NCBI GenBank assembly: GCA_002238945.1
Contig: MPNI01000002.1
Location: 72,855 to 136,854 of the forward strand
Source: Proteobacteria bacterium bin106
Lineage (GTDB): Bacteria > Bdellovibrionota_B > Oligoflexia > Oligoflexales > Bin106
DNA: 64,000 nt
Direction: 5' to 3'
Shown here: in pieces, positions 22,814-44,946 of the stretch
Numbering within the stretch: position 1 is the stretch's first letter
Layout of the letters: each line of letters opens with the position of its first letter
Notes under the pieces: generated by a model
Database searches by the model: none
Seen by the model: the letters and a program-made list of their open reading frames with translations, nothing else
Told to the model about the DNA's origin: nothing
Made by a program: the position numbers and the translations under genes

Positions 22814-22854
22814 CACATCTCGTGTTTTAAAAGAAAATGCCACACACTCTCTAG

Positions 22855-25800
22855 AGTTATCCATATAAAAACAAAAAAGGTTATGTTATCTCTAGCTCTA
22901 CCGTTTGCCCTCCGCAGCAAAAACACAGCCAAGATTTTCTTAACACTCTTAAAAATCATCACGATTTTTGTGGAGTCATCACCACTTCTATCAGTCATTT
23001 AGCCGTACATTCCACCGATAACAGCATCTATGAACTCACTCCCCGTGCTGTGATTTATCCCAAGCAAGAACGTGATATTTCCCTTGTTTTATCCTTACTC
23101 GAACGTAAAGAATATAGAAACATAGCTATCACAGCTAAAGGAGGAGGTACATCTACCAATGGCCAATGTCTTGCTTGGCAAGAAGGGATTATCCTTGATA
23201 CCTCAAGATTTATGAATCATATCCTTGAGATCTGTCTTAAAGAACAATACGTACGCGTACAAAGTGGAGTGGTGCTGGGAAGACTCAATGAGGAGCTGGC
23301 AAAGCATGGTTACATGTTTGCTCCCACCACCTCCACCAGCTCACGTGTCACTATCGGAGGAATGGTTTCCACAAACGCCTCTGGAATTGGCTCAAGCAAG
23401 TGGGGACGTACCAGCGATCATCTCAAGTCAGTACGTCTTATATTGCTGGGAGGAGAGAGTTGGGATGTTACAACCCTAGCTACTAAAACCTCACCAAACA
23501 CCCTTTCTCCAAGGATCCGTTTGATCATCAAACGGATCTGTGAAGAAATCCAAAAAAATACCACCCAGATAGCACGGGTTTTTCAAAAGATGCCCCGCTC
23601 TCTTACCGGCTACAACCTAGATATTCTCTCTCAAAACACATTACATCTACCAGCTCTCATCTCTGGCTCTGAGGGCACTCTTGGCATCATCAGTGAATGC
23701 ACATTAGCTATAGTGAAAAAACCTCGCCATAAAACCTTACTTGCCTGTGTTTTTAAAGACTGGGATGCTTGCTTACAAGCAGGCCAGTGGAGTGTGGCTT
23801 TGGGAGCAAGCTGTGTTGAAGCCTTAGACCACTCACTACTCACTGCTGCTCGTAACGATATCACCTGGCACAGCCAGCCTCTTGCAACAAAGCTCTCCCA
23901 GATCACCGACAGTACACTCACTGTACAACTCGTGGAGTTTGATGCCACAGATCAAACCGAAATAGAAGACATTCAAAGCCGTTGCATCAAAGCCATAGAA
24001 AGCCACGGCAAACAACACAAAATCATTGCCTGGCACTTTTCTTCCAGTGAAGAAGAACGCTTAGCTTTATGGAATATCCGCAAAAATGCCGTGGGATTAT
24101 TTGCAGCAAGCTCATCATCTGCACATTCCTCGCTACGAAGCTGTGCTTTTATAGAAGACGCTGCTGTGCATCCTCAAGACCTACCAGAGTTTATCAAAGC
24201 TTTTGGTGCCATCCTGGATAAACATCAAGTACCTTATGGTATGTATGGGCATCTTGATGCAGGATGCATGCATGTACGTCCCAAACTCGATACCGCTGCA
24301 CCACAATTTGCCAAGCAAATAGCTCGCATCAGCGAAGATATCAAAAATCTCTCTTTAAAATACAAAGGACTATTATGGGGAGAGCACGGCAAAGGACTCC
24401 GTAGCCAATACACCAAAGAGTTTTTTGGAGACACACTCTATGATTCTCTGCAAGTTATCAAAACTCTATTTGATCCTCATTATCAACTCAATTGTGGAAA
24501 AATCTGTCCTCCACAAAACTACAGCGATGAAGCTATCCCGCAAGTTGATGAAGTCCCCATGCGAGCAGACCACGAACACTCTATTCCTCATTTAGACAAA
24601 GAGCTCTTTGCTGATGCCTATCGCTGTGATGGCAACGGACTCTGCTTCAGTGTACATAGCCACGATATCATGTGTCCGAGTTTTCGAGCCACTGGCTCAA
24701 GAGTTCATTCGCCAAAAGGACGAGCTGCCATCATCAGAGCATGGTTGCAGCAATCTCAGTTATCATCAGGGCGAGCCACTCAAAAACACAGCAATATCGC
24801 CAAAATTCGGCTCCAACTCACCAAGCCCTTTAAAGCTCGGCTGCAGCAAAAGTCTTCTTTTTACGAACACGAAAGTGATGATATCTCTGAGCATCTCTAT
24901 CACAGCCTCAACGGCTGTTTATCCTGTCGAGCATGCAGTGGTACCTGTCCTTTAAAAGTGGATATTCCAGAGCTCAAATCACGCTTTCTTGACATCTACC
25001 ACAAGCAACGTCCTCGGCCACTGCGAGACTATATCATCGCTTTCAGCGAAGATATTCTGCCACGTCTTGCACGTAACACACTGTTACGCACCCTCTACAA
25101 CACCACCATCTCTTTAAAACCTTCACTATGGTTTATGAAGCATGTCATCCGTCTGTGTGATCCTCCACCTCTCTGTGATGGTACACAACATCTCAAAAAA
25201 CATCACATCCTTCACTCCTATAGCCCCCCACAGCCATCACTTCTTATTGTTGCCGATATGATGTCTTTAGCTCTTGAAAAGGACCTGCTCCATTACAGTT
25301 TTCATTTTTTAGAAGCCGTAAACCTCTCTCCTTATCTTGCTCCTTATTCTGCTAGCGGCAAATCCTGGCATCTCAGAGGTTTTCTCAAACGCTTTAGCCA
25401 CATCGCCCTTACGCGTCACCAACATCTCGAAAAACTTGCCGCAAGCCATACTCTCATGGGCATAGACCCTGCCTTCACATTCACCTATCGTGGTGATTAT
25501 GCTAAATACCTGCCCAAAAATAGCCCTCGTAACTGGCATGTCCTCACCCCTCAAGAATGTCTTCATCAACTGTTTCAAAAAAAAGATGCTTGTGGTGAGT
25601 CCATAAAATCCCTTAAACAATCCGCATCAAAATGGCGAGCTCTATTAGTGGAGCATTGTTTTGAACGCACCACTTTAGCTGGGAGTGCAAAATTGTGGCA
25701 GGAGGTATGTGCTAAGATGGATATTTCTCTCGAATACCAACCCATGGGATGTTGTGGTATGGCAGGATTTTTTGGGCATGAAAAAGAACATCTCAAAGAA

Positions 25801-26025
25801 TCCAAAGATATTTTTTCTATCCACTGGCAAAACACCCTCAATACTTTTATTGCTGAAACACCAGGTCATATCACACCGGTGTTTTTGGTCCCTGGTGGCA
25901 GCTGTCGCATGCAAATAAAACGTTTTTTTTCAAAAAAGAATTGTCACATCTACCATCCCCTAGAGTGGCTAGGAAGACTTTGCAAAACACATTATGAAGT
26001 ATCTCCAAAACCGGTAATATGTTAG
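22855..26025 (+). CDS. ydiJ: FAD-linked oxidase fused to an Fe-S/CCG oxidoreductase (YdiJ/GlcD-GlcF-fusion type); start codon unresolved
   Basis: FAD_binding_4 motifs (AKGGGTSTNGQ, GGMVSTNASG), a 4Fe-4S motif (CLSCRACSGTCP) and C-terminal CCG-type cysteines. The conserved STDNSIYELTPRAVIYP lies upstream of the first canonical start (GTG 23050). The frame is open from 22855. Confidence 0.8.
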   Translation, partial: SYPYKNKKGYVISSSTVCPPQQKHSQDFLNTLKNHHDFCGVITTSISHLAVHSTDNSIYELTPRAVIYPKQERDISLVLSLLERKEYRNIAITAKGGGTSTNGQCLAWQEGIILDTSRFMNHILEICLKEQYVRVQSGVVLGRLNEELAKHGYMFAPTTSTSSRVTIGGMVSTNASGIGSSKWGRTSDHLKSVRLILLGGESWDVTTLATKTSPNTLSPRIRLIIKRICEEIQKNTTQIARVFQKMPRSLTGYNLDILSQNTLHLPALISGSEGTLGIISECTLAIVKKPRHKTLLACVFKDWDACLQAGQWSVALGASCVEALDHSLLTAARNDITWHSQPLATKLSQITDSTLTVQLVEFDATDQTEIEDIQSRCIKAIESHGKQHKIIAWHFSSSEEERLALWNIRKNAVGLFAASSSSAHSSLRSCAFIEDAAVHPQDLPEFIKAFGAILDKHQVPYGMYGHLDAGCMHVRPKLDTAAPQFAKQIARISEDIKNLSLKYKGLLWGEHGKGLRSQYTKEFFGDTLYDSLQVIKTLFDPHYQLNCGKICPPQNYSDEAIPQVDEVPMRADHEHSIPHLDKELFADAYRCDGNGLCFSVHSHDIMCPSFRATGSRVHSPKGRAAIIRAWLQQSQLSSGRATQKHSNIAKIRLQLTKPFKARLQQKSSFYEHESDDISEHLYHSLNGCLSCRACSGTCPLKVDIPELKSRFLDIYHKQRPRPLRDYIIAFSEDILPRLARNTLLRTLYNTTISLKPSLWFMKHVIRLCDPPPLCDGTQHLKKHHILHSYSPPQPSLLIVADMMSLALEKDLLHYSFHFLEAVNLSPYLAPYSASGKSWHLRGFLKRFSHIALTRHQHLEKLAASHTLMGIDPAFTFTYRGDYAKYLPKNSPRNWHVLTPQECLHQLFQKKDACGESIKSLKQSASKWRALLVEHCFERTTLAGSAKLWQEVCAKMDISLEYQPMGCCGMAGFFGHEKEHLKESKDIFSIHWQNTLNTFIAETPGHITPVFLVPGGSCRMQIKRFFSKKNCHIYHPLEWLGRLCKTHYEVSPKPVIC

Positions 26026-26159
26026 AGTTTTGAATGATTGCTTAGATTTTCCATGAAACCTAAGGATAATATATCTATTCCTATCATCCATACATTTTTT
26101 GCAACGTAACCCATTAACCATCATATAAAAAATAGACAAAAGAAAAAACCTACACAGCC

Positions 26160-26546
26160 ATGAAAAACAACTTTATGCACACATTTTACCTGCTTAAAGA
26201 CCTTGCTGAAGAAGCTCTTTTGAGCAAAGATTCCTTAGCTCGTCTTATTCAACAAGCATCTATTAAAGTAGCTCGACAAAGACCGCGTCTCAAAGAAACC
26301 GGAAAAGATCTTCTCACCTTTATCGACCTTCTTAAAAACTATAGCACTGGCTATTACCGCAACATTTCTCCTCAAAACATTGCTGTTGTGGCGATGGTGT
26401 GTTTATACTTCTTTAACCCTTTTGATGCTGTACCTGACTTTTTACCTCTAGGATTACTCGATGATATTCAAGTGGTGGCACTGGCTATCAATCTGTTAAA
26501 AAATGACATCAAAAAGTTTCGAGACTTTTGCCAAAAACCCTCATAA
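26160..26546 (+). CDS. DUF1232 (YkvA-like) membrane protein
   Basis: Motif NPFDAVPDFLPLGLLDDIQVV is typical of DUF1232. Confidence 0.6.
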   Translation: MKNNFMHTFYLLKDLAEEALLSKDSLARLIQQASIKVARQRPRLKETGKDLLTFIDLLKNYSTGYYRNISPQNIAVVAMVCLYFFNPFDAVPDFLPLGLLDDIQVVALAINLLKNDIKKFRDFCQKPS

Positions 26547-26559
26547 CTGGCTATAAACT

Positions 26560-27117
26560 ATGAAATCTCCATCCAGCTCTAGCCCCAACATTAACTTAAA
26601 CTCTTACTTACCTTTGGTTTGGGTGTTAATGTGTGCTGTTGCTCTAGCCTGCTTGCGGGTTCTCTATCTTAGTGACTCTAGCAGCGAACCTTTAAATGAA
26701 TCTTTAAAAGAACTCATCATGTCTGCAATGGGTTATTTTGTATGTAACCTCGCTTTTTTAAAACTCTTAGATGTTGGTGCATTTAAGAAAAGTTTTCTAC
26801 GCTATGATCTTGTGGCATCTCGGCTCCCTTATTACGGCACAGTTTATCCGTGGCTAGAACTGAGTGTAGGAATAAGTTTTTTAGCTTTTCCTGAACAACT
26901 CGCTAGCGGTATTCTCGCTACCTTTATGGGGGTTTCTGGTGCTATCTCCATCACCATAAACAAGCTCAAACCTGAACAAAATACCGCCAGCGGCCATGCA
27001 GCCAACCATTGCGCTTGTACTGGTGGGCACTTAAAAGTTCCTTTAGGCCTACTCAGCATCGCTGAAAACATCGCCATGATCGTTATGGGTATCATGCTGC
27101 TAGGTTATTTAGGTTAA
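26560..27117 (+). CDS. MauE/DoxX-like membrane protein
   Basis: Four hydrophobic helices and a C-terminal CACTGG motif resembling the MauE CGCFG region. 13-nt gap to the DUF1232 gene. Confidence 0.45.
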   Translation: MKSPSSSSPNINLNSYLPLVWVLMCAVALACLRVLYLSDSSSEPLNESLKELIMSAMGYFVCNLAFLKLLDVGAFKKSFLRYDLVASRLPYYGTVYPWLELSVGISFLAFPEQLASGILATFMGVSGAISITINKLKPEQNTASGHAANHCACTGGHLKVPLGLLSIAENIAMIVMGIMLLGYLG

Positions 27118-27160
27118 TAATAACGTCAACCAAGACAAACCATCTTCATAAACATAGCCT

Positions 27161-28702
27161 ATGCATCAACGCTCCTCCACCCGGATTATTTGGAACCTAT
27201 CAGCCAGGCAACTGCTTAACTCAAAAGTAGGTTGTTGTCTTATCGGAGCCGGTGATAAGCCTGAGGTCAACAAACCGCCATTCATCCAATGGCCCCATGG
27301 CTTATGCATTGAATCGTCTCAAAGACACAAAAAAGAGACCTTATCTTATCTCCATAAAATGCGTACTTACTTTGCCTCACTGCAAAGCCCTATGCCTGCA
27401 CTTATGCTCTCATTTCGCAAAACACCTAAAGGGCACGTGCTCTCTGAGAGCCAAGATGTGACAACAGGTCAAACCATCATGATCTACGCCTCAAACCAAA
27501 CCCGTCAACACAGTCAACATAGTCGTCAACACAGTCAACATAGTCGTCAACATAATAAACCACAAAACAACTCTCCTTTGTGCCCATCAGTTGTGGTTTC
27601 TATGCAAGACTTTGCAAGTGTGCGTTGTGGTGATGAGCTTTATTTTGGCTATGGAGATTGTGTTGTTAAGGCTTTAGAGGTTAAAGAAAAAAGCCTCTTA
27701 GCTGAAGTGGTATCCCAAGGTACCATCCATACTGAAGCTTCCTTTGTTGTGGATGTCTCTGACGAAACCACAGAAAACCTCTTAGAGCAACACATCAGTG
27801 CCGGAGAGCTTAAACAGGTCGGTGTGAATTATCTCATGTTACCCGGCTCGCTATCACCAAAAACCGTTAAAACTTTACGCCGGCATCTTAGGCGAGATGA
27901 TGAAACCTCTCCATGGCTGATCTTTCGCATCGATTCCAAACAGGCTATTAAGCGCTTTCGCGCTGTTGAAGAGGATGTTGATGGGGTGATGATCTCAAGA
28001 CGAGATCTTGCTCTCACAGAAAATCCTGACATGCTGCCTATTCTTACCAAAGAATTGATTGCCCGCTGTCGCTATAAAGCCAAACTAGCCATTGTTGCCT
28101 CTCATATGTTGGGCTCCATGAGACAACAGGTCACACCTACCCGTGCAGAGGTGAGTGATATCGCTTATGCGGTTTTTGATGGAGCTGATGCCATCACTCT
28201 TCCTGAAAAAACCCTCATAGGCCCTTATGGAACCACTGCCACCGAAGTTGCCTCACGAGTCATTGAAGATGTCACCTCCAATCGTTCAACGTTACATCAT
28301 CATCATAACAAACTGCGAGATGTGGATCCTTCAGATATGGAAATGGATGTGATCTGTATCGAAGCTGCAAAAACAGCTCTACACATTAACGCTAAGGCCC
28401 TTGTCTGTATAACCAAAACCGGAAATACCGCCCTGCGTCTTTCCAGTATTGATATAGGACTGCCCATTATCGCTATCACTTTCCATGAAACCATCTCCCG
28501 TAAGCTGCAACTCCTCAGAGGAGTGGAAAGTCTTGTGCTCAAATCCAACCCAGGAGTAGATAAAATATTGCCACGTATCAATGAACTCATCAAAGCCATG
28601 GGATGGCTTAAAAAAGGCGATAAAATTGTCTTTGTTACGGTCACTCTTTCTTCCATGAGTGATGAAGCCAGTAACCTCTTTACGGTCCAAAATATCTATT
28701 GA
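27161..28702 (+). CDS. pyruvate-kinase-like protein with degenerate catalytic motifs
   Basis: PTRAEVSDIAYAVFDGADAITL, SHMLGSM and MISRRDLALTE align to PK motifs (PTRAE.SDVANAV.DG.D..ML, TQMLESM, MVARGDLGVE). The N-terminal K+/substrate motifs are not conserved. Contains an RQHSQHS repeat. Confidence 0.6.
   Translation: MHQRSSTRIIWNLSARQLLNSKVGCCLIGAGDKPEVNKPPFIQWPHGLCIESSQRHKKETLSYLHKMRTYFASLQSPMPALMLSFRKTPKGHVLSESQDVTTGQTIMIYASNQTRQHSQHSRQHSQHSRQHNKPQNNSPLCPSVVVSMQDFASVRCGDELYFGYGDCVVKALEVKEKSLLAEVVSQGTIHTEASFVVDVSDETTENLLEQHISAGELKQVGVNYLMLPGSLSPKTVKTLRRHLRRDDETSPWLIFRIDSKQAIKRFRAVEEDVDGVMISRRDLALTENPDMLPILTKELIARCRYKAKLAIVASHMLGSMRQQVTPTRAEVSDIAYAVFDGADAITLPEKTLIGPYGTTATEVASRVIEDVTSNRSTLHHHHNKLRDVDPSDMEMDVICIEAAKTALHINAKALVCITKTGNTALRLSSIDIGLPIIAITFHETISRKLQLLRGVESLVLKSNPGVDKILPRINELIKAMGWLKKGDKIVFVTVTLSSMSDEASNLFTVQNIY
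27504..27557. repeat. 21-nt tandem repeat (cgtcaacacagtcaacatagt x2.6), in frame
   Basis: Read directly; encodes RQHSQHS-RQHSQHS-RQHN. Confidence 0.9.
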
Positions 28703-28876
28703 TATCCGTGATATCAAATAGCACACTCACTCATCACCTTGACCTTTCTTGCCGACCATGATAGTCTGGCGTGCCTATCTTGGAAAAGATGGTGGTGCTT
28801 AGAAAAAAGCACTTTCACCACAACTTCCATAAGGCTAACCCAACTCCAACATTTACCATCGCCGAGAGTCTTTCAT

Positions 28877-30409
28877 ATGCTACGTTCATGCGAACTTTTT
28901 GCTGTCTTTCTGATATTACTGAGTTTATCCATTGATCACACTTACGGACAAAACAATCCCTCATCAGCACGTTCTTATCTTGATGATATTTTTGAATCAG
29001 GTGGTGCCTTAGATCAAGAACCAATAACAGATAGATCAGCTTCTTTTTTCTCTGCATTTTTGCCAAACCAGCAATTTGTATTAAATCCTAACTATAACAA
29101 TAAACGCCCAGCAGTAAGAATTCGTTTTCTACAATCGGTACACTTTGATGCAGGACCTTCACTCCAAAAACGTACTTCCTCTCTTAAAGTCACATTGATC
29201 GGAACACAGCAACAAACCAGCACAGATGAGCAAGGACGCCTTATAATCAGCAACCTTCCTCCAGGAAGTGAATTTCTCTTAGCTTCAGGAGAAGATATTA
29301 CCTATAAGCCCATGCTTCACAGAGTGATTGTACCCACAGCCATAGACGAAGAAGACACACCTATGATCTCACTAGAACAGATCACCACAGAGCATTTTAA
29401 CTCATGGCTTGAAGCTGTGGGTATAAAAGAAGAAAACAACCGTGGGCATATTTGTGGAAAAGTGTCATGGCAAAGTCATCAAAACACCAACAAAACTTTT
29501 CGAAAAAACTTTAAAGTTTCTATTTTTCAAAGCTCCGTTCAACCTATCTACTTTGATGCCAATGGTCAGGTTAATTTAGACCTTAAAGCCACTTCCTCTT
29601 CAGGAAAATTCTGCTTCTTCAATCACCCAGCAGAATCTGTGCTCTTAAGTGTTGCGTTTAATGATGTAAGCGCTCCCCTAAGAACCTTAAGTGCCGTATT
29701 TGCAGGCTACACCACCTCTATCGATATCATCAATGTAGCTGAACCTTCTCCTTATGACATCACATATTTACATGGAGGTTCAGCCACCGATTTAACCCTT
29801 CATGTCCCACAACCACAATTCCTTCATACCCAACCACAACCATCCACCAGACCCTTACATGTCATTGAAGGACAGATCAAACACAACCGCGCGCAACCAC
29901 AAACTGGCACCAAAGTATCTCAATTACGTGACGCTAATAGTGTCTCGTTATCTCTTCATACAGCTGCCCGAAGACCCACTGTTAGCACCACAAACCCTCT
30001 TTGGGAAAGTGCTCTAAGCACCATCCCTCCTATGGACGCCACAGATCATCATTTCCTCTTAGTCTTCCCCAAAAGCACCTTTTCTGAACTTGCTCACATG
30101 ATTGGAGCAGGGTTCATAGAAAATCTATCCTCTTTGATAATCACTCATGGTCTTAAGCCTCAAGAAAAAAACATCTCTGTTATAAGTGAGCTATGGGATG
30201 AAAGAGGACTGGTGAAAAAACACGACTGGCTACGTGTCCATGACAATGACGTATTACACGCTGCTTTCTTTAATCTTTATCCTGGCCGTTATCAGTGGCT
30301 TCTCAAATCTGAAAACGGTTATTGGTTAGACAGTCGTGTTGTGGATATTTTAGAAAGAATTCATCACTCTGTACAATCAGGAAGACAGTACATACTCACA
30401 GAAAAGTAA
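28877..30409 (+). CDS. secreted protein with carboxypeptidase-regulatory-like beta-sandwich domain(s)
   Basis: The ATG at 28877 gives signal peptide MLRSCELFAVFLILLSLSIDHTYG|Q. The segment LKVTLIGTQQQTSTDEQGRLIISNLPPGSEFLL resembles CarboxypepD_reg. The ORF track starts at TTG 28739. Confidence 0.5.
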   Translation: MLRSCELFAVFLILLSLSIDHTYGQNNPSSARSYLDDIFESGGALDQEPITDRSASFFSAFLPNQQFVLNPNYNNKRPAVRIRFLQSVHFDAGPSLQKRTSSLKVTLIGTQQQTSTDEQGRLIISNLPPGSEFLLASGEDITYKPMLHRVIVPTAIDEEDTPMISLEQITTEHFNSWLEAVGIKEENNRGHICGKVSWQSHQNTNKTFRKNFKVSIFQSSVQPIYFDANGQVNLDLKATSSSGKFCFFNHPAESVLLSVAFNDVSAPLRTLSAVFAGYTTSIDIINVAEPSPYDITYLHGGSATDLTLHVPQPQFLHTQPQPSTRPLHVIEGQIKHNRAQPQTGTKVSQLRDANSVSLSLHTAARRPTVSTTNPLWESALSTIPPMDATDHHFLLVFPKSTFSELAHMIGAGFIENLSSLIITHGLKPQEKNISVISELWDERGLVKKHDWLRVHDNDVLHAAFFNLYPGRYQWLLKSENGYWLDSRVVDILERIHHSVQSGRQYILTEK

Positions 30410-30452
30410 TCCAAAAGATGCTTACGCAAACATCATATAAGATATAGAAAAA

Positions 30453-30486
30453 CCCAACCTCAACAAAAGAGATTGGGCTTTTTTTA
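30453..30486. terminator. putative bidirectional intrinsic terminator between convergent genes
   Basis: cccaa-c-ctc / gag-a-ttggg hairpin, flanked by an A-run on the left and T7 on the right, so there is a U-tract on both strands. Confidence 0.5.
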
Positions 30487-30530
30487 TTAAAATATTGATT
30501 CACGTCACACATGTTTAAATCACTGAACAG

Positions 30531-30566
30531 CTTATTGCACAACTTATTGCACAACTTATTGCACAA
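30531..30566. repeat. 12-nt tandem repeat (cttattgcacaa x3) containing the stop codon of the repeat lipoprotein
   Basis: Read directly. On the minus strand it reads gtt gtg caa taa x3, i.e. VVQ-stop three times in frame. Confidence 0.9.
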
Positions 30567-31965
30567 CGAGCACCAACGCTTGATCACCTAAGTAGGATAG
30601 ATCATTAACATTTTTATACAAAGCTAAACACGTACCATAGTGAGAAAAATCAAACTTCGTATTCCGCTCCACAGGTTGGCTGCCTTCTGCAGTCAAGTCA
30701 GATGTGTAATTCCCTGAACTCACTGAGCCCAAGACCACATCAGAACCTTTCATATAGACATTTCCTTGATTAACCTCTAAGCCAAGAGCTTGGGTTATAA
30801 GGCGGCCACTTTTTACCACAAATGTAGCTAAGGTGCTGGCTGTCACTCGATACAGTGAACCAAACAACACTGTGGCAAAACCAGCATAATCCAAAATACT
30901 ACCTTGATCATCTACCTGATTGCTATACAACGTTGTCACATAACGATCTATGACATATTCCCCACCGTCATGATAAATGACCTGATTAACCGCATTTTCA
31001 CACGCCAAATCACCTCTCGTTTCTTGAGCCCACATTCTCACGGTTTCTCCTTGAGCACCAGTGCCTCCTGTCTGTTGTTGCATAGCGCCTTTGCCCTGCA
31101 ATACACCAGCCTTACCTTTACCTTGCGCTACACCGCCTTGAAGAACACCACCCTTACCTTGACCTACGCCACCTTTGCCCTGAAGTACACCACCCTTACC
31201 TTGACCTACACCACCTTTGCCCTGAAGAACGCCACCCTTACCTTGACCTACGCCACCTTTGCCCTGAAGAACACCGCCCTTACCCTGCGCTACACCGCCC
31301 TGAAGAACGCCACCCTTACCTTGACCTACACCGCCTTTGCCTTGAAGAACACCACCCTTACCTTGACCTACACCGCCTTTGCCTTGAAGAACACCGCCTT
31401 GAAGAACACCGCCCTTACCTTGCAATACGCCTCCTTGAAGTACGCCGCCTTTAGTTGGTTCTCCTTTGCCTACAACCACAGCACCTTGCATGACACCGCC
31501 CTGAAGAACACCACCCTTACCTTGACCTACACCGCCTTTGCCTTGAAGTACGCCACCTTTGCCTTGACCTACACCGCCTTTGCCTTGAAGTACGCCGCCC
31601 TTGCCTTGAAGAACACCACCCTTACCTTGCAATACGCCACCTTTACCCTGAAGTACGCCGCCTTTGCCTTGACCTACACCACCTTGCTGGACGACTCCAC
31701 CTTGAAGTACGCCTTTTTGGCTAACCACAGTACCGCTGCTATCTTCAGGAACTTCTTCCACATCCTCAAGAACTTCCTCTGGCTCTTCTTGTTCCTGAAT
31801 TTCTTCAACAGGTGGTGGTGCAGCGGGAGCGTCAGGCTCGTTTGGAGCCAAAGTCTGATCTGCTGACTCACCACAGCTCCACACAATTACGCTAGCAAAA
31901 CACACACAGGCCAGCATTTTATAGGCACTCAAAGTAAACAATTGCCTGTTAACCAATGTTTTCAT
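30556..31965 (-). CDS. lipoprotein with an acidic linker, about 30 Gly-rich heptad repeats and a Cys-bracketed C-terminal domain
   Basis: ATG at 31965 has GGGGAG 8 nt upstream. Signal/lipobox MKTLVNRQ...VIVWSC|G. GKGGV[LG]Q repeats span aa ~87-299. The C-terminal domain is paralogous to CDS 32251..33132. Confidence 0.6.
   Translation of the reverse strand: MKTLVNRQLFTLSAYKMLACVCFASVIVWSCGESADQTLAPNEPDAPAAPPPVEEIQEQEEPEEVLEDVEEVPEDSSGTVVSQKGVLQGGVVQQGGVGQGKGGVLQGKGGVLQGKGGVLQGKGGVLQGKGGVGQGKGGVLQGKGGVGQGKGGVLQGGVMQGAVVVGKGEPTKGGVLQGGVLQGKGGVLQGGVLQGKGGVGQGKGGVLQGKGGVGQGKGGVLQGGVAQGKGGVLQGKGGVGQGKGGVLQGKGGVGQGKGGVLQGKGGVGQGKGGVLQGGVAQGKGKAGVLQGKGAMQQQTGGTGAQGETVRMWAQETRGDLACENAVNQVIYHDGGEYVIDRYVTTLYSNQVDDQGSILDYAGFATVLFGSLYRVTASTLATFVVKSGRLITQALGLEVNQGNVYMKGSDVVLGSVSSGNYTSDLTAEGSQPVERNTKFDFSHYGTCLALYKNVNDLSYLGDQALVLVVQ
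31078..31716. repeat. 21-nt (heptad) tandem repeat array, with a 42-nt higher-order unit in part
   Basis: Near-identical units, read directly, encoding GKGGVLQ/GKGGVGQ with shorter GGVLQ/GGVAQ variants. Confidence 0.95.
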
Positions 31966-32250
31966 ACTTCTCACTCCCCAACCTTTTCATGATTACTGAC
32001 CATCTAAAATCTTTACTTCAGCTCTAATGTCTAATCGTTATCACTGCCTTAATTATGCTGGGCAACGCTTTTGCCAATCTATCCTGCATTTAAAGACCTC
32101 ATGATTCTCGGACAAGCAAGGAAGCAAATAAGTAATATTTTCCTAAGAACTTATTTTTGTTTTTAATATCAATGAGTTAAGCAATAATCCTTGCCGCTTC
32201 TTTGTGGCAGGGATCGGCTAAAAGGGACATAAAAAAAAGCTATTTAGGTG

Positions 32251-33132
32251 TTATTTTAAAGGCGTTGCACGCAAGTAATGCTCTACTTGAGGCAGTTTGG
32301 GTAGAAGTAAAAGAGGCATGCCGCCGGAGAAATAAGCCCCTGCTGCATTTTTATAAGTAGCAAGACATGCTCCATAGGCTGATAAGTTAAGAAGATAGTT
32401 TTCCCCTTCCTCACTTACGGCCTCTTTTTTGATCAACTCACCCAAAGGATGAATATATTCATGACGCTCTGCTCCGTCTGTTGAGGTTCTCACAAACTTC
32501 AACACCAAATAACCTTCTCGCTCACCAACGGAAGCATGACGATACCAATGGCCTGATATCAAATTGCGAAAGCCAGGTATGAATCTATTTCTACGTCCGG
32601 TGACATCTATGTAATAGAATTCAAATCTCTTATGCAACATATGCTTAAACACACTCAATTGCACATATGTTTCAGCCATAGCAAAGGCATAAGAGCCAAT
32701 CTGAATCACCTGATTTGCAGGATCATCACAAGCCTCAGAAACAGGAGCGCGGCTTGCTCTCATGGCTCTGGTGCTCATGGGGTTTGTGCTACCAGCTGGA
32801 ATGTTAGCATTAACGTTTTCTGCTGTCATGTTCGAGCTTATCCCAGTCGGCTCTGTGGAAGGAGGTATCCTACTCGCATCTCTTGGTATTCTTGGCATCC
32901 TAACCACTTCTTCACCCTCCATAGCCACCGGTGGGCGAGAACGTGGTGACATCACCACCGTTTCCCCTCTCATAGGCTCAGCTGCAGCATCAACAAAATC
33001 ACTTTCCGTAACTGTTGGCCCCTGACGACGTGTTATGGGTATATCTCCACAACCACTAACAAGTTCACAAAAAAGCGCACATATGATCAGTGAATGCTTG
33101 CTTTTAGCTGTTGCCATATCTACACAGAACAT
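32251..33132 (-). CDS. lipoprotein, paralog of the 30556..31965 C-terminal domain
   Basis: ATG at 33132 has AAGGAG 6 nt upstream. Lipobox ELVSGC|G. Pro/Arg/Met-rich linker. Shared motifs AC[ED]xxxNQVI and YGxCLAxYKN at the same spacing. Confidence 0.55.
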   Translation of the reverse strand: MFCVDMATAKSKHSLIICALFCELVSGCGDIPITRRQGPTVTESDFVDAAAEPMRGETVVMSPRSRPPVAMEGEEVVRMPRIPRDASRIPPSTEPTGISSNMTAENVNANIPAGSTNPMSTRAMRASRAPVSEACDDPANQVIQIGSYAFAMAETYVQLSVFKHMLHKRFEFYYIDVTGRRNRFIPGFRNLISGHWYRHASVGEREGYLVLKFVRTSTDGAERHEYIHPLGELIKKEAVSEEGENYLLNLSAYGACLATYKNAAGAYFSGGMPLLLLPKLPQVEHYLRATPLK

Positions 33133-33350
33133 ATGAAACTCCTTAACACATCTCTTAAGCTCTTACTTTTAGCCTGGCTCTGTGAAACTCGGCTTAGCCA
33201 AGCAGATCATAAGACAGCGTGCTAGGCGATTTTTTTCGTATCCATCTGATTCATCTTGCAAACAAGCTGCCTAGAAAAGCTTAAAAGATGTTATGTTGTA
33301 GAAAATGTGTTTGAATCATTCAACACCCACACATACTTCTTGATCAAAGC

Positions 33351-35207
33351 TTGAATCATTCACAGGCACTTATGTTCACAGCCCTCAAACAACACCCCCT
33401 TTTTCAACTCTGGCTTAAACGTAAAGATTGGCGACGTAGAAGCGTTGTAGGAGCTGTATTTTCTTCTCTGAACAAGCTCTTTGATATCGCCCCAGAAATT
33501 CTTATTGGCCTTGCTGTAGATACTGTGGTGAATCGAGAAAGCAGTTTTCTTGCTGATATCCTTCATACCTCAGATCTTTTTTCCCAAATCCTCGCCCTTG
33601 GCGCTCTTACATTTCTTATTTGGGGACTCGAGTCTGTTTTTGAGTATTTACAAAAAATCACCTGGCGACGACTGGCACAAAATGTTCAACATGCCTTACG
33701 TATCGAAGCTTTCAGCCAAACCATTCATTATGCATTGAGTTGGTTTGAAAAAGAAACCACCGGAAACTACGTAACAACATTAAATGAAGATATCCATCAA
33801 CTGGAAAGATTTCTTGATGGTGGTATCAACACCATCATTCAACTGATCTGTTCAACGGTTTTTGTGTCATTGGTGTTTTTTTATGTCTCTCCCTTATTGG
33901 GCATTCTCTCTTTAATTCCCATCCCTTTACTCTTTGTGTGGTCTTCTCTATTTCATAAAAAATTACGCACCCTCTATAGCTTTGCACGCAAAGCCTCAGA
34001 AGATGTAGCGGTACGACTTAGTGGAGTCTTTTCAGGTATTGTGGTGATAAAAAGTTTTAATCAAGAAGATAATGAAACCAAAACACTCACCTCATTATCC
34101 AATGCCTATGTGGAAGCTAACCAGAAAGCTATTCTACTCAGCAGTGCTTTCACTCCCACTGTAAGAGTGTTTATTCTGCTGGGTTTTCTTTCCACATTGA
34201 TGGTAGGAGGATATTTGTGTCTTAGCGGAAAAATTGGTGTACCTGCTTACTCCATCGTGGTTTTCCTCACCCAACGCCTACTTTGGCCCTTCACCACCCT
34301 TGCTGAAACCATCGATCAATATCAACGCGCTATGGCTTCAAGTCATAGAGTGATGACATTCCTTTCTCAAAAAACCCAAAACCTCGAAGCAGCACAGCTT
34401 GCCACACCTAGCCCTATAACCAGCCCTATAACTAGCACTATAACTAGCACCCCGCCTTCTGCTTTGACATGTCAAAGCTTGCACTTTAAAGATGTTCACT
34501 TTTCTTACCCAGCATCTGAAAAGCCCACTTTGATAAATGTGAATATTGCAGCAAAAAAAGGTGAAGTGATTGGCATCTGTGGCCCAACAGGCAGTGGTAA
34601 ATCCACTCTTGCCAAACTCTTGCTACAGTTTTATCCACCAGCATCAGGAGGTATTTATTTTGATGATCATCTCACAGGAACAAGTCTACCCCAAGCCATG
34701 CGTCATTCCATAGCTTTTGTTTCACAAGACACGTTCTTGTTCGATGACACCATCGGCCATAACCTACTCTATGGCAATCCTGATGCCACAACGAGCCAAC
34801 TTCAAGAGGTGATGGATTTATGCAAGCTTTCTCCGTGGATAGCCACCTTACAAGAAGGCCTCAACACCGTTATTGGCGAAAGAGGGGTGAAGATATCAGG
34901 AGGACAAAGACAAAGGATATCACTAGCACGAGCATTGCTCAAAAAAGCACCCATTCTCGTCCTCGATGAAGCCACCTCTGCCATCGATAATGATACCGAA
35001 AAAGATATTAATGAGGTGATTTACGGACAAGCAAGCGATAAAATCACGCTCGTCATTGCCCACCGGCTCTCTACCATCAGAGCCGCTCATCGTATTTATG
35101 TGCTTGTAGAAGGGAAAGTTACCGAAACAGGAACCCATCAAGATCTCTGCAACAAACCACAAGGCACTTACCATAATCTGTGGAAACTTCAAACAGGAGA
35201 GTCTTAA
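33351..35207 (+). CDS. ABC exporter, fused permease/ATPase (MsbA-like type I)
   Basis: Six-TM domain, then Walker A GPTGSGKST, signature ISGGQRQR and Walker B ILVLDEATSAID. The linker carries the SPITSPITSTITST repeat. Start is TTG 33351 or ATG 33372. Confidence 0.85.
   Translation: MNHSQALMFTALKQHPLFQLWLKRKDWRRRSVVGAVFSSLNKLFDIAPEILIGLAVDTVVNRESSFLADILHTSDLFSQILALGALTFLIWGLESVFEYLQKITWRRLAQNVQHALRIEAFSQTIHYALSWFEKETTGNYVTTLNEDIHQLERFLDGGINTIIQLICSTVFVSLVFFYVSPLLGILSLIPIPLLFVWSSLFHKKLRTLYSFARKASEDVAVRLSGVFSGIVVIKSFNQEDNETKTLTSLSNAYVEANQKAILLSSAFTPTVRVFILLGFLSTLMVGGYLCLSGKIGVPAYSIVVFLTQRLLWPFTTLAETIDQYQRAMASSHRVMTFLSQKTQNLEAAQLATPSPITSPITSTITSTPPSALTCQSLHFKDVHFSYPASEKPTLINVNIAAKKGEVIGICGPTGSGKSTLAKLLLQFYPPASGGIYFDDHLTGTSLPQAMRHSIAFVSQDTFLFDDTIGHNLLYGNPDATTSQLQEVMDLCKLSPWIATLQEGLNTVIGERGVKISGGQRQRISLARALLKKAPILVLDEATSAIDNDTEKDINEVIYGQASDKITLVIAHRLSTIRAAHRIYVLVEGKVTETGTHQDLCNKPQGTYHNLWKLQTGES
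34410..34448. repeat. 12-nt tandem repeat (agccctataacc x3.3), in frame
   Basis: Read directly; encodes (SPIT/STIT)n in the ABC exporter's TMD-NBD linker. Confidence 0.9.
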
Positions 35208-35229
35208 AACATGGCCTAACAAACACGCC

Positions 35230-35556
35230 TTATCTGCCGTAATAGACCGCAAAGTAATGAAAAGCACCAGCTGCTAACAAAACTACACCCACAAGGACTA
35301 GCACAATCCAAAGCGAAGATTTTGATGTCTTCTTAACAGAGGTTCTTTGGGTAGAAGAAGTCCAATCACCTCCTGAAAAAGAACTTAGCTTTGACATAGA
35401 TGAAGATATTGAGCGAGCGCTTTTACCACTTGCCATTTTTTTGGAAGAACCTCTTGTCTTTGACATAGGCTTTTTTTCAAGACGTTCATCCACCAATTGC
35501 AAGAGCTTTTCGAGCTCTTGTTTCTCATCCAATTGAGGTAGTTCAAATTCCGCCAA
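35230..35556 (-). CDS. small tail-anchored hypothetical protein
   Basis: TTG start, Ser/Lys-rich middle, single C-terminal TM helix WIVLVLVGVVLLAAGAF. Lies downstream of secA. Confidence 0.35.
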   Translation of the reverse strand: MAEFELPQLDEKQELEKLLQLVDERLEKKPMSKTRGSSKKMASGKSARSISSSMSKLSSFSGGDWTSSTQRTSVKKTSKSSLWIVLVLVGVVLLAAGAFHYFAVYYGR

Positions 35557-35586
35557 TTTTACCTCTCAGTAGCTCTTTAGCTCTTA

Positions 35587-35610
35587 TTCTATAGCTAGTT
35601 CTATAGCTAG
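35587..35610. repeat. 12-nt tandem repeat (ttctatagctag x2) spanning the secA stop codon
   Basis: Read directly. The secA TAG (35607-35609) lies in the second copy. Confidence 0.85.
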
Positions 35611-38444
35611 GAAACATTCCTGCCACAACAATGTTTATACTTCTTTTTTGAACCACATGGACACGGATCATTACGACCCACCTTTTTTTCAGACTTACGT
35701 ACCACAGTTCCCAGACTTTTTTGAGACGAACTCTGACCCTCTGTCATAGCTCGTCTACCATCACTGTTATCTCCACCACCAGCTCCATGATAAGATACAC
35801 GCTTATCAAGATCCAAGTCCGCTGTTTTCTTATTAAGAATCTTGCGAGCTTTTTTGGGAAGAGTGTTTAAAGCATCGCTGAGTAACGCTTGAGTCGTTGG
35901 ACTCACCTCAGCTGTATCTTGCTGCTGTTCTTGCTGTTCTTGTTCTCCTTGTTGTTGCTGCTGTTCTTGTAAGGCAGCCTCTTTAGCACGCACAATTTCT
36001 TGGCGTGGAGGCACAGATAACAAAAAGCGGCTTATCTCACGATTGATGGTATCCATCAATCGGCTAAATAATTGATAAGCTTCTTTTTTATACTCCTGAA
36101 GAGGATCCCTTTGCCCATAACCACGTAATCTTACCGCATCTTTCAAACCATCCATATCCAAGAGATGACTCTTCCATTTCACATCCACTATTTGCAAATA
36201 CACCGACTGAGAAAGAGAATGGATTTCTTTAAACTCTTTAAGCACATCAAGTACATCGTCACATTTTTTATGAAGGTCCTGTTTGAGTATATCAAGAAAA
36301 GACTCCTCATCTTGAGGTAATGGTGCCGAACGTGATACATCGTCTTTGCTTCCTAAAATCACAGGAACGTAATGAAAGAGCTCCTGAGCCTTCTCTCTCA
36401 TTTTAGCTAAAGGCCAGCTGTCACGTTCTTCTTGATCATCTTTGAGCTGTTTTGGCACTAAAGAAGAATCGTGCGTATCTTTATCCATCGCTTGAAGCTC
36501 TTTAACCATGGCAGCATCTTCGAGTAACTCTGCTGCCATACGATCCACAGCATCAAACATCACCTCAGCAAAGTCCATTTCACCTCTAAGAGCCTCACCA
36601 CGTCTTTGATAAATAATCGTGCGCTGAGTGTTCATCACATCATCGTATTCTAGAAGATGCTTTCTTGATGAAAAGTTTTGTTCTTCCACACGTTTTTGAG
36701 CTTTTTCAATAGCCCGTGACACCATGGATGATTCAATAGCTGCACCACCTGTAAGACCCATGGTTTTCATAATTCCTGATAAACGATCTGAAGCAAAAAT
36801 ACGCATCAAATCATCTTCTAAAGACAGATAAAAACTGCTTTTTCCAGGATCACCTTGACGGCCTGAACGCCCCCTCAGCTGATTATCAATACGACGTGAT
36901 TCATGACGCTCTGTACCGATAACCAACAAACCACCTAAAGCTAAGGTTTCATCGCTTAACTGAATATCCGTTCCTCGACCTGCCATATTGGTAGCAATGG
37001 TGACATGTCCGCGCTCTCCAGCATGAGCAATAATATCCGCCTCACGAGAATGGTTTTTGGCATTAAGAATCTCATGAGGAGTGCCCTTATCTTTAAGAAG
37101 AGATGATAACAGCTCTGATTTTTCCACCGATGTTGTTCCTACCAGAACCGGCTGACCACGATGCGATTCTTTGGCAATCTGAGCAGCAATAGCTTCAAAT
37201 TTCTCAGAAGCTGTACGATACACCACATCCACCATATCCTGACGAATAATGGGCTTATTGGTGGGAATAACGACCACATCGAGATTGTAAATCTTCTTAA
37301 ACTCCACAGCCTCTGTATCAGCCGTACCTGTCATGCCAGAAAGAGTAGGGTACATGCGAAAGAAATTCTGAAAGGTAATACTCGCTAGAGTTTGTGTCTC
37401 TTTTTGGACCTCCACACTTTCTTTAGCCTCAAGGGCTGAATGCAAACCATCACCATAACGCCTACCAGGCATCAAACGCCCGGTGTGTTCATCGATGATC
37501 ATCACCCGGTTTTGCTGAACCACATAATGCACATCCTTTTTAAATAACACCTCAGCTTTAAGCGCCTGATGAATATGATGCAATAAATGTGCATGGGAAA
37601 GATCAAACATATTGGCTATCTTTAAACGCTTTTCTATACGTGATACCCCATCATCTGTTAAAGAAACACTACGGGATTTTTCATCGATCACATAATCACT
37701 GTCTTTGCGTAATCCTGTAATGGTCCGTCGCGCAAGATGATAACTGTCCTGCTCACCTTCAGCATCACCCGAAATAATCAAAGGAGTACGAGCCTCATCG
37801 ATAAGAATAGAGTCCACTTCATCCACAATGGCAAAATGAAAAGGCCTTTGTACCAAGTGATCCACATCCACTTTCATATTATCGCGCAAATAATCAAAGC
37901 CAAACTCGTTGTTAGTACCATAGGTGATATCAGCAGCATAAGCCTTCTTACGCTCCGCATAAGACAAACCCTGAACAATCACCCCAACCGATAAACCCAG
38001 AAAAGTATATGTGGCTCCCATCCACTTAGCATCACGCTGAGCTAAATACTCATTAACCGTAACAACATGAGCACCTTTGCCGGTTAAACCTCTTAAATAA
38101 CACGGCAAAGTTGCTGTAAGTGTTTTACCTTCACCGGTTTTCATCTCAGCAATATTGCCATAATGCAAGACAATACCACCAGCAAGTTGTACAGGGAAAT
38201 GTCTTTGAGAAAGAACACGTTTGCTCGCTTCACGACATACCGCAAACACTTCACATAACAGATCATCAAGAGATTTTCCGTTACGCAACAATTCTTTGAA
38301 ATAAGGCGTTTTAGCTTGCAACTCCTCATCGCTCAAAGCACTGATAGTAGGCTCTAAAGCCTCTATGTTTTTGACTAAAGGAGATATCTTTTTTTTAAGA
38401 ATTCTATCGTTTTGGGTGCCAAACAATCGCTGCATAAAAGCCAT
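35607..38444 (-). CDS. secA: preprotein translocase ATPase SecA
   Basis: MAFMQRLFGTQNDRILKK N-terminus, DEAD-like motifs (MKTGEGKTL, DEVDSILIDEARTPLIISG), TNMAGRGTDI, and the C-terminal Zn finger CPCGSKKKYKHCCG. ATG at 38444 has AGGTG 6 nt upstream. Confidence 0.97.
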   Translation of the reverse strand: MAFMQRLFGTQNDRILKKKISPLVKNIEALEPTISALSDEELQAKTPYFKELLRNGKSLDDLLCEVFAVCREASKRVLSQRHFPVQLAGGIVLHYGNIAEMKTGEGKTLTATLPCYLRGLTGKGAHVVTVNEYLAQRDAKWMGATYTFLGLSVGVIVQGLSYAERKKAYAADITYGTNNEFGFDYLRDNMKVDVDHLVQRPFHFAIVDEVDSILIDEARTPLIISGDAEGEQDSYHLARRTITGLRKDSDYVIDEKSRSVSLTDDGVSRIEKRLKIANMFDLSHAHLLHHIHQALKAEVLFKKDVHYVVQQNRVMIIDEHTGRLMPGRRYGDGLHSALEAKESVEVQKETQTLASITFQNFFRMYPTLSGMTGTADTEAVEFKKIYNLDVVVIPTNKPIIRQDMVDVVYRTASEKFEAIAAQIAKESHRGQPVLVGTTSVEKSELLSSLLKDKGTPHEILNAKNHSREADIIAHAGERGHVTIATNMAGRGTDIQLSDETLALGGLLVIGTERHESRRIDNQLRGRSGRQGDPGKSSFYLSLEDDLMRIFASDRLSGIMKTMGLTGGAAIESSMVSRAIEKAQKRVEEQNFSSRKHLLEYDDVMNTQRTIIYQRRGEALRGEMDFAEVMFDAVDRMAAELLEDAAMVKELQAMDKDTHDSSLVPKQLKDDQEERDSWPLAKMREKAQELFHYVPVILGSKDDVSRSAPLPQDEESFLDILKQDLHKKCDDVLDVLKEFKEIHSLSQSVYLQIVDVKWKSHLLDMDGLKDAVRLRGYGQRDPLQEYKKEAYQLFSRLMDTINREISRFLLSVPPRQEIVRAKEAALQEQQQQQGEQEQQEQQQDTAEVSPTTQALLSDALNTLPKKARKILNKKTADLDLDKRVSYHGAGGGDNSDGRRAMTEGQSSSQKSLGTVVRKSEKKVGRNDPCPCGSKKKYKHCCGRNVS

Positions 38445-38485
38445 GAAACACACCTACACCAAAACCATAGAAAACATTTACAAGC

Positions 38486-39490
38486 TTACAATTTATCCGA
38501 AGCACTCGCTGCTGCAAAGTTCCAGGCCAGGTCAGTTTGCATCATAAACTTACGGGGATCACGTGCTCGTCCATTCACCCATACCTCATAGTGAAGATGA
38601 GGCCCTGTGGAACGCCCTGAAGAGCCCACAGCAGCAATGGGATCACCACGTTGCACCTTCTCTCCTGTTTGTACAAACAACTCCGAATTATGACCATATT
38701 TTGTCACCATGCCATGATCATGAGCAATCATCAATAACAAGCCAAAGCCAGGCTTTTTACCTGAAAAAATCACCACGCCACTAGCTGGGGCATACACCGG
38801 AGAACCCACCCGAGCAGCTATATCAATGCCATAATGCATGGTACGTTGCCCCGTAAAAGGAGAAATACGGTACCCATACCCTGAAGTGACCCACCCCTTC
38901 ACCGGCTTGCCCAGAGGAATTGATGAAAACAAATGACGCTTTTGCTGAAGGGTTAAGAGTAATTGTTTTAAAAGATTGCTCTGCTGATAAGCTAATTTAT
39001 CCACAGTATGAATCTCTTGGATCAAAGGACGAAACACAAAATCATCAAAAACAATCCCCAAAGCTCCACGATCAGCATTATCCCTTTGTGGCTGAGCTAG
39101 CTGATTGCGATGATGAATACGCTCTTCTTCTGCGGTTAAAGGACCTATGCCAGCACGCTTAGAAACACGGTCCACTTTAAAAGCTACTAACTCACTGAGA
39201 TTTGCCATGTAACTATCCACCTTCTTGAGCTGCTTTTTAGCCACTTCAAGCTGAGATGACACCAAAGATGCTTCTGAACGCATATGCTCACGCTCACTCA
39301 AAGCTTCTCTATATTCATGCTGCATCCCACGCAACGACAGATAATGACTCACCACAAACACAGCCACACCTAACAACACGCTACTCATTGCCATCACCAC
39401 CATCAACAAACGATGGGAGACATGTAAACGACGTGTTGTGTGGCTTTCCTCAGAAAGCAACATAACCGTATAGTGTTTAGACAATGACAT
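38486..39490 (-). CDS. M23-family metallopeptidase (murein endopeptidase-like)
   Basis: N-terminal TM helix, coiled coil, then HYGIDIAARVGSPVYAPASGVV and HLHYEVWVNG (the HxxxD / HxH metal motifs). Confidence 0.85.
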   Translation of the reverse strand: MSLSKHYTVMLLSEESHTTRRLHVSHRLLMVVMAMSSVLLGVAVFVVSHYLSLRGMQHEYREALSEREHMRSEASLVSSQLEVAKKQLKKVDSYMANLSELVAFKVDRVSKRAGIGPLTAEEERIHHRNQLAQPQRDNADRGALGIVFDDFVFRPLIQEIHTVDKLAYQQSNLLKQLLLTLQQKRHLFSSIPLGKPVKGWVTSGYGYRISPFTGQRTMHYGIDIAARVGSPVYAPASGVVIFSGKKPGFGLLLMIAHDHGMVTKYGHNSELFVQTGEKVQRGDPIAAVGSSGRSTGPHLHYEVWVNGRARDPRKFMMQTDLAWNFAAASASDKL

Positions 39491-39645
39491 CCCTCTCTGA
39501 TCCGTTAAAAACGATCTAACTCTCTTCGCTCATTCTCTCTATTTCGTCTATTGTTTTATCTCTCTTGTTTGCTCTCAAGTAACATCACCTAAGCCATCAC
39601 TTCGACAATAACACCTCTTCACATAATGAGAATTACACTCTCTCT

Positions 39646-39689
39646 CTCATTCATCTCTCATTCATCTCTCATTCATCTCTCATTCATAT
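39646..39689. repeat. 11-nt tandem repeat (ctcattcatct x4)
   Basis: Read directly. Lies in the spacer between the PP2C gene and the M23 peptidase gene. Confidence 0.9.
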
Positions 39690-41404: not shown

Positions 41405-41440
41405 CCCTACTGAACAATCATCATCTCAAGTAGCTATCTA

Positions 41441-44934: not shown

Positions 44935-44946
44935 ATATTCTACTTA

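Follow-up and report, generated by a model that had tools for sequence, protein, structure and literature searches.

A Gly-rich heptad array in a rare bacterial lipoprotein: a candidate disordered cationic tether of variable length

What is a long array of Gly-rich heptads doing in a lipoprotein of an uncultured bacterium, and is this array young and expanding, or old and maintained by selection? The question is raised by a gene located in a stretch of 64,000 nt (the window, to which all coordinates refer), which encodes a repeat lipoprotein, here designated type-B, beside a paralogue, designated type-A. The DNA pattern corresponding to GKGGVxQ (GGNAARGGNGGNGTNNNNCAR) has 20 matches in the window, all of them in the type-B gene, where 0.00 are expected (100 shuffles). 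The features of the locus, all on the minus strand, are listed below from 5' to 3', together with the evidence used to delimit them.

32251..33132 (-): type-A paralogous lipoprotein, 293 aa, without GKGG repeats, directly upstream of the type-B gene; the C-terminal domain is common to both
31974..31979 (-): Shine-Dalgarno-like GGGGAG, 8 nt 5' of the type-B ATG (sequence read directly)
30556..31965 (-): type-B repeat lipoprotein gene, 469 aa, with its ATG at 31965 and its stop at 30556-30558 (ORF list and translation)
31873..31965 (-): predicted signal peptide and lipobox Cys31 (..SVIVWS/C-GES), the Cys being invariant in alignment A1
31717..31872 (-): acidic Pro/Glu-rich block, aa 32-83 (charge-block analysis)
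31072..31716 (-): Gly/Lys/Gln/Val repeat array, aa 84-298 (TRF, translation, DNA pattern, AlphaFold2)
31450..31485 (-): island GAVVVGKGEPTK within the array, aa 161-172, with the motif GK[GSA]EP (translation)
31310..31395 (-): 86 nt repeating exactly with a 42-nt period (a 44-nt sequence recurs unchanged at offset 42)
31015..31071 (-): short non-repeat linker, aa 299-317 (translation; AlphaFold2)
30559..31014 (-): predicted C-terminal all-beta domain, aa ~318-469, with 2 invariant Cys, C322 and C446 (AlphaFold2)
30527..30567 (-): 12-nt tandem repeat (GTTGTGCAATAA) x3.4, reading 'VVQ-stop' three times and holding the type-B stop codon
30448..30482 (-): terminator-like hairpin and T-run, 74 nt 3' of the stop (consensus scan only)

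The type-B ORF was considered a real gene because its C-terminal domain has a dN/dS of 0.076 (P0002/P0003 orthologue pair) and because it is flanked by the terminator-like hairpin and by the GGGGAG motif, which probably acts as a Shine-Dalgarno site. A plus-strand ORF (30904..31866, 320 aa) was dismissed as a product of reading the repeat in antisense, homologues and domain conservation being all on the minus strand. The Rfam scan of the window returned no match.

Lipoprotein signals were searched using a strict lipobox rule (PROSITE PS51257-type), which consists of a hydrophobic h-region followed by [LIVMFWSTAG](2)-[LIVMFYSTAGCQ]-[AGS]-C near the N-terminus. Such a signal is present in 16 relatives. 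The lipobox of the window protein (VIVWS/C) fails this rule owing to a Trp at -2 and passes a loosened PROSITE-type rule only, which makes it atypical. A lipoprotein-type gene carrying an in-frame heptad array, as proposed in the preliminary description, is supported. The residue at +2 after the Cys is Gly in the window protein and in nearly all relatives (C-G), and Asp is absent at this position. According to the E. coli Lol-avoidance rule, outer-membrane lipoproteins lack Asp at +2 after the lipidated Cys. By this rule, which may not hold in the host lineage, type-B would be an outer-membrane-type lipoprotein; the protein is presumably lipidated and located in the envelope, and the two invariant Cys of its domain would fit an oxidising, extracytoplasmic location. 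Besides the genes discussed below, the window holds Na+-NQR, Trk, MlaD, mur genes and dnaA-dnaN-gyrB-gyrA. The presence of MlaD and mur genes points to a diderm host with peptidoglycan, and the gene content as a whole, including dnaA-dnaN-gyrB-gyrA, to a chromosomal locus near the origin.

The array is made of roughly 31 units, namely 20 canonical heptads (13 GKGGVLQ and 7 GKGGVGQ), about nine pentads or hexads (KGVLQ, GGVVQQ, GGVGQ, GGVMQ, GGVLQ three times and GGVAQ twice) and two degenerate units (GKGKAGVLQ and GKGAMQQQ). As a generic peptide the repeat is written (GKGGVLQGKGGVGQ)n. The preliminary description had placed the array at 31078-31716 (aa ~87-299), in agreement with the limits found here, and had counted about 30 heptads; when the translation was parsed the Gly-rich array stood, but only 20 units proved to be canonical heptads, the rest being pentads or hexads, degenerate units and the island. 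It had rightly recorded the short GGVLQ/GGVAQ units and the single non-repeat island, as well as an alternation of GKGGVLQ and GKGGVGQ forming a 42-nt unit, which is seen at aa 128-155, 195-222 and 228-276. The periods returned by TRF in the array are 21, 42, 78 and 120 nt. Its residues are dominated by Gly (43%), followed by Val (16%), Gln (16%), Lys (12%) and Leu (8%), with no Asp and one Glu. The first 44 residues of the linker have a net charge of -17 (charge-block analysis), and the basic linker block that encloses the array has a net charge of +24.

In the AlphaFold2 model of the full-length protein, aa 63-317 have a pLDDT of ~30 and no secondary structure; this model was fed by only 10 sequences, and a low pLDDT is in itself no proof of disorder. 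When the C-terminal domain was modelled alone (last 150 aa), an all-beta fold was predicted with a pLDDT of 92.4 and a pTM of 0.87. We lean, with slightly better than even confidence, towards an array that serves as a disordered cationic tether of variable length, in a lipoprotein of the outer-membrane type that has the repeat-less paralogue as its partner.

A folded rod, on which the preliminary description had speculated, would instead be a beta-roll or solenoid of 14 residues per turn (GKGG as the turn, V-x-Q as the strand) or a polyglycine-II bundle. The Gly content and the regular period of the array speak for such a rod, and Leu alternating with Gly in the middle of the strand could conceivably let large residues pack against small ones in a thin roll, but the structure prediction gave no strands across the array. 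The register is moreover broken by the pentads and the island, the higher-order unit differs among relatives (14, 18, 21-28 or ~31 residues), and Lys residues stacked in ladders would be mutually repulsive without a bound counter-ion. Collagen-like and polyglycine-II proteins need Gly at every third residue, whereas the Gly fraction by phase mod 3 in the array is 0.44/0.46/0.46, that is, without a period of 3. The rod speculation found no support in these results, and we regard it as very improbable.

The same even spread of Gly over the three phases, the predicted disorder and the absence of a Pfam Collagen match distinguish the array from bacterial collagens and from the polyglycine-II antifreeze protein of snow fleas, to which it is alike only in its high Gly content. 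RTX repeats (GGxGxDxUx) are likewise Gly-rich short tandem repeats of secreted bacterial proteins, but they need Asp to bind Ca2+, repeat every 9 residues and carry a T1SS signal at the C-terminus. The window array contains no Asp among its 215 residues and repeats every 7; the protein has a lipoprotein-type signal at its N-terminus and no Pfam HemolysinCabind match. Both kinship with collagen and kinship with RTX had been denied in the preliminary description, correctly on this evidence.

The age of the array was assessed by comparing the DNA of its units. These had been described as near-identical copies, hence as signs of a recent expansion; on the contrary, most units have accumulated synonymous differences, the peptide remaining constant. 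Ten DNA versions were counted among the 13 GKGGVLQ units (mean identity 85%) and three among the 7 GKGGVGQ units (95%). The seven 42-nt double units have a mean identity of 92% (86-98%) with no identical pair, and the longest exact direct repeats are of 47 and 44 nt. Homogeneity reaches 91% in the C-terminal half of the array, versus 81% in the N-terminal half. Between heptads, pS is 0.55 and pN 0.07, giving a pN/pS of 0.12-0.14; pS lies at 0.50-0.56 in the arrays of four relatives, and the array of L087 has 18 DNA versions among 20 units. As the heptads differ at 55% of their synonymous sites and seldom in amino acid, the peptide motif is considered to be under purifying selection. The motif G-K-G-G-[VI]-x-Q persists in relatives in which the C-terminal domain is only 32-40% identical. 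Judged from these sequence comparisons, the array is mostly old, with a few recent local duplications.

A largely neutral origin was weighed against this selection: the array would be a by-product of a general tendency of the genome to tandem duplication, tolerated because it falls in a linker. The window does contain 22 tandem-repeat arrays in 64 kb, compared with 0-1 in simulated sequence; small in-frame repeats occur in other genes (ABC exporter, 34408..34448; SecA, 35911..35969), and the two differences from the contig L081 described below are both changes in tandem-repeat copy number. A neutral by-product is nevertheless hard to reconcile with the low pN/pS between units whose synonymous sites are near saturation, with a heptad motif kept in lineages of such divergent domains, and with a conserved order of acidic then basic block. 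We therefore consider this explanation improbable.

Returning to the tether, whose length is proposed to vary, the window was compared with public assemblies. It is 100% identical to contig JAPOPS010000065.1 of GCA_026712765.1 ('MAG: Proteobacteria bacterium'), and the identical sequence is found in the Logan assemblies SRR8093131, SRR10444673 and SRR10444678 and in JGI 3300002160. SRR8093131 is a dataset of the sponge Aplysina aerophoba (bioRxiv 10.1101/2024.01.09.574914). Among the matches listed for SecA of the window, identity to GTDB representatives reaches 53% at most. The sample prefixes KELL22-1 and NGUY21-1, carried by the contigs of two relatives, may also point to sponge studies, as far as can be guessed from names.

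The ENA contig L081, aligned over 21.4 kb to positions 20556..41976 (pairwise and MAFFT alignments), shows 0 mismatches and two indels. In the first, L081 lacks a single unit of the array, 42 nt long and encoding 14 aa (GKGGVGQGKGGVLQ, in one register or another), which results in a protein of 455 aa (P0001); it is the sole difference within the gene, and is placed within 31310..31395, its exact position in this periodic stretch not being fixable. The second changes by one the copy number of an 11-nt tandem repeat between genes, at 39643..39687. The identity of 99.2-99.5% given by blastn between the window and L081 was rejected as an artefact, its HSPs having crossed the repeat, and the global alignment is free of mismatches. 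In all, the 469-aa allele was seen on four assembled contigs and the 455-aa allele on one. This single length polymorphism comes from metagenome assemblies, where an assembly artefact is the alternative; it is probably real, since both differences are copy changes of tandem repeats and since the assembler k of 141 exceeds the 86 nt of the periodic stretch. Indels of 7, 7, 14, 14 and 21 aa separate the arrays of the sister species L084 and L087 (~86% nucleotide identity). Together with the 42-nt indel between otherwise identical assemblies, these differences bear out the size-variable protein of the preliminary description. The short-read contigs L091, L093 and L094 all stop within the array, which is expected for repeats and was not counted as evidence of heterogeneity.

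Relatives of the type-B protein are very few. A full-length search of 5.8 billion proteins gave eight matches only, all from ENA metagenome assemblies and all of identical architecture. A profile of the C-terminal domain, which the window protein itself matches, was searched against 1.84 billion representative proteins and retrieved 27 at E<=1e-3, 12 of which at E<=1e-10; P0019, P0021 and P0029 are weak matches in several stretches. These 27 are small lipoprotein-like proteins, about a dozen of them with GKGG-type repeats, and the linkers of the others are either non-repeat or composed of other short repeats, e.g. GKYEP or GKGEPTK. The motif GK[GSA]EP, found in the island of the window array, is seen again in linkers elsewhere in the family, in several members and lineages. 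The type-B architecture was the same in 12/12 proteins: a lipobox Cys, an acidic block (net charge -11 to -23), a basic Gly/Gln/Lys block (+7 to +26) and the domain. No charge balancing was seen between the two blocks, their charges showing no co-variation across the family, and any charge pairing between them would be hypothetical. Further profile word-index searches added one protein (P0031) and no type-B member, and a single-domain query gave no match in genome contigs or metagenome contigs. The degenerate DNA pattern GKGG[VI]xQGKGG[VI] gave one unrelated chance match only in JGI metagenomes.

Neither the repeat nor the domain was recognised by the reference collections. No Pfam or NCBIfam match was obtained for the type-B protein, the type-A paralogue and one neighbour, and the C-terminal domain had no match in Pfam, NCBIfam, PDB or BFVD; Pfam searches on all 27 domain sequences gave noise only, as did the domain profile against PDB sequences (best E 0.07). 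A literature string search for the heptads gave no match among the papers covered. The statement that this repeat family is not a recognised one therefore holds across Pfam, NCBIfam, PDB sequences and literature strings. On the basis of the sequence signature C-x4-N ... G-x-C-L-x-x-Y, we propose that the domain defines a new, very small family of paired type-A/type-B lipoproteins.

The common ancestry of the two members of the pair is clearer in profiles than in single sequences: hhalign between type-B-only and type-A-only profiles gave a probability of 99.4% (E 3.7e-21), and BLASTP similarity is weak. In 7/7 lineages (the window, L082, L083, L084, L085, L087 and L088) the type-A gene directly precedes the type-B gene and shares its strand, which suggests that the two proteins act together. 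In these seven lineages, for which the DNA was fetched, the A-then-B pair always adjoins pyruvate kinase. Other neighbours are genes for an ABC exporter, SecA, an M23 peptidase, PP2C and RNase J. Among the genes of the window, none was seen for a transglutaminase or for dedicated secretion.

The design itself, a lipid anchor followed by a repeat linker and a globular domain, is already known; it is the specific family and the heptad repeat that are new. Three known systems come close to it in design. In Neisseria AniA, the lipid anchor is joined to the globular domain by an AAEAP-repeat linker (PMC5542605). Lip/H.8, Laz and AniA are alike to type-B in their lipid-modified Cys, a putative feature in type-B, followed by a low-complexity region of imperfect short repeats and then by a globular domain, and in their diderm host. 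Their repeat region is however Ala/Pro/Glu-rich and of ~35 aa, whereas the window array is Gly/Lys/Gln/Val-rich, of ~215 aa, cationic and of heptad period, and the globular domains are unrelated, with no sequence similarity. The disordered linker of TonB, with an acidic Glu-Pro stretch preceding a basic Lys-Pro stretch (PMC10771500), resembles that of type-B as an acidic-then-basic connection between a membrane anchor and a small C-terminal domain. TonB is however anchored by a transmembrane helix, spans ~70 aa with Pro-based PPII rods and ends in a TonB_C domain; the window protein has a putative lipid anchor, a Gly-based basic block and an unrelated domain, without a Pfam TonB_C match.

The third system, the Vsa proteins of Mycoplasma, are size-variable repeat lipoproteins in which copy number alters length and shielding depends on length (PMC6080569). 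Vsa/Vlp and the window protein are alike as lipoproteins with in-frame tandem repeats of variable copy number. The Vsa/Vlp repeats, with units of 10-19 aa, form the C-terminal end of phase-switching, multigene proteins in Mollicutes, which have no outer membrane. The window gene, in contrast, is a single type-B gene with one type-A paralogue, has diverged DNA units and a conserved C-terminal domain, belongs to a diderm host and has no sequence similarity to Vsa/Vlp. By its domains and motifs, type-B belongs to none of the Neisseria AniA/Lip/Laz, TonB and Mycoplasma Vsa groups.

The Vsa shield has a counterpart in a further reading of the array, in which the repeat itself is the effector. The array would cover the cell surface as a polycationic brush or coat, either shielding the cell or binding anionic polymers (LPS, eDNA, sulfated matrix of the host); its length would tune adhesion or protection, and the beta domain would be secondary. 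Lys-rich repeats of the mycobacterial HBHA bind sulfated glycans, and in type-B a conserved motif with one Lys per heptad, a strongly positive basic block, strong selection at the peptide level, a variable array length and the presence of the organism in sponge metagenomes would all be in keeping with an effector. The beta domain is however the most conserved part of the protein, and it is present without GKGG repeats in type-A and other proteins, which argues that it is not dispensable. The DNA units also differ from one another far more than those of typical size-variable antigens that change at high frequency, and the locus has neither a multigene family nor a phase switch. An effector role of this kind is a possibility to be taken seriously, though we judge it unlikely.

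For the disordered cationic tether, which we prefer, the four parts of the protein would be a Cys bearing the lipid anchor, an acidic Pro/Glu block, a cationic heptad array of ~215 residues and a small all-beta domain containing a disulfide. The array would be flexible, would set the reach of the C-terminal domain from the membrane, and would supply regular positive charge to the linker with one Lys per 7 residues. Its length would shift by 15, 21 or 42 nt whenever units slip against each other or recombine unequally, while selection would maintain the peptide motif G-K-G-G-[VI]-x-Q, and the protein would probably cooperate with the repeat-less paralogue encoded directly upstream. We stop short of a confident case for a purely passive tether mainly because the strict conservation of G-K-G-G-[VI]-x-Q and GK[GSA]EP exceeds the needs of a generic spacer; given this strictness, the repeat may have a specific partner or an activity of its own.

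One form that such an activity could take is a response to a ligand, the array being either a Lys-lined beta-roll of 14 residues that folds only on a polyanion, as a cationic counterpart of the folding that Ca2+ induces in RTX, or a Gln/Lys-rich element cross-linked or bound to the anionic matrix of the sponge. This would make the A/B pair a symbiosis-specific surface attachment module with a reach tuned by repeat number, and we give it little probability. Should the tether be correct as proposed, it would provide a low-complexity linker in which the motif is strongly selected while the DNA diverges and the length drifts, of use for asking which sequence features of disordered tethers matter. 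The finding opens no long-standing question; it describes a very rare two-gene lipoprotein module from uncultured bacteria in sponge metagenomes, which is a candidate envelope or host-interface factor.

A last difference concerns the extreme end of the protein, where the 12-nt tandem repeat overlies the stop codon: the window protein ends in ..LVLVVQ, versus ..LVLVLP in most type-B orthologues.

Window and second assembly (ENA contig L081, which encodes a 455-aa allele of the 469-aa predicted heptad-repeat lipoprotein) were compared over 21.4 kb and contained no SNPs, the only differences being one 42-nt unit of the heptad array and one copy of an 11-nt tandem repeat, of which L081 carries one fewer than the window:

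39643..39687, 11-nt tandem repeat TCTCTCATTCA, 4.1 copies, intergenic

Short tandem repeats are unusually frequent in the window (1..64000): it holds 22 distinct arrays, with periods of 6-21 nt and 2-8 copies each, whereas each of 20 windows simulated with a Markov-1 model had 0-1. The majority are placed in intergenic spacers or at gene ends; a (G)CTAG core is common to several of the repeat units, and the unit GCTAGTTTTAG[GA] is present as two separate arrays. Examples, in addition to the 11-nt repeat, are:

41431..41480, short tandem array
51064..51105, short tandem array
54145..54254, short tandem array
54347..54404, short tandem array

In-frame short tandem repeats are also found inside two housekeeping genes:

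34408..34448, ABC exporter gene, 12-nt period, encoding 'SPITSPITSTITST'
35911..35969, SecA gene, 9/12-nt period, in the Glu/Gln-rich C-terminal part

A further array contains the stop codon of the lipoprotein gene and encodes 'VVQ-stop' three times:

30527..30567, minus strand, 12-nt tandem repeat GTTGTGCAATAA, 3.4 copies

As the protein ends in ..LVLVVQ, whereas most type-B orthologues (the family members with a GKGG-type repeat linker) end in ..LVLVLP, its C-terminus seems to have been remodelled by duplication of the 12-nt repeat.

The gene directly upstream encodes the type-A paralogue, which has the same beta domain, no GKGG repeats and a conserved C-terminal tail (..LP......Y.K); this type-A gene lies directly upstream of the repeat gene in 7/7 lineages.

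32251..33132, minus strand, type-A paralogous predicted lipoprotein, 293 aa

On the other side, a large orphan ORF separates the repeat gene from the pyruvate kinase gene; it is annotated as 510 aa in L081, and its protein had no match in Pfam or NCBIfam.

28739..30409, plus strand, orphan ORF, 556 aa

In four relatives carrying the lipoprotein pair (L083, L084, L087 and L088), the slot adjoining pyruvate kinase is filled by large orphans of 586-724 aa, likened to this one by position only. An antisense ORF running through the repeat (30904..31866, plus strand, 320 aa, containing ..TLTYATFALKNTTLTL..) was rejected as a gene, being an artefact of the stop-free antisense frames of the array.

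GC skew is negative over nearly the whole window, and the window carries a replication gene cluster, both of which fit a position adjoining the replication origin; the GyrB encoded there is unusually long (937 aa).

55965..63820, minus strand, dnaA, dnaN, gyrB, gyrA cluster

IS/transposase genes (DDE_Tnp_1, ISL3, DDE_5) are located no more than a few kb from the lipoprotein pair in three relatives (L083, L087 and L088), one of these genes being fused to a DruA domain (L088, 12507..15230).
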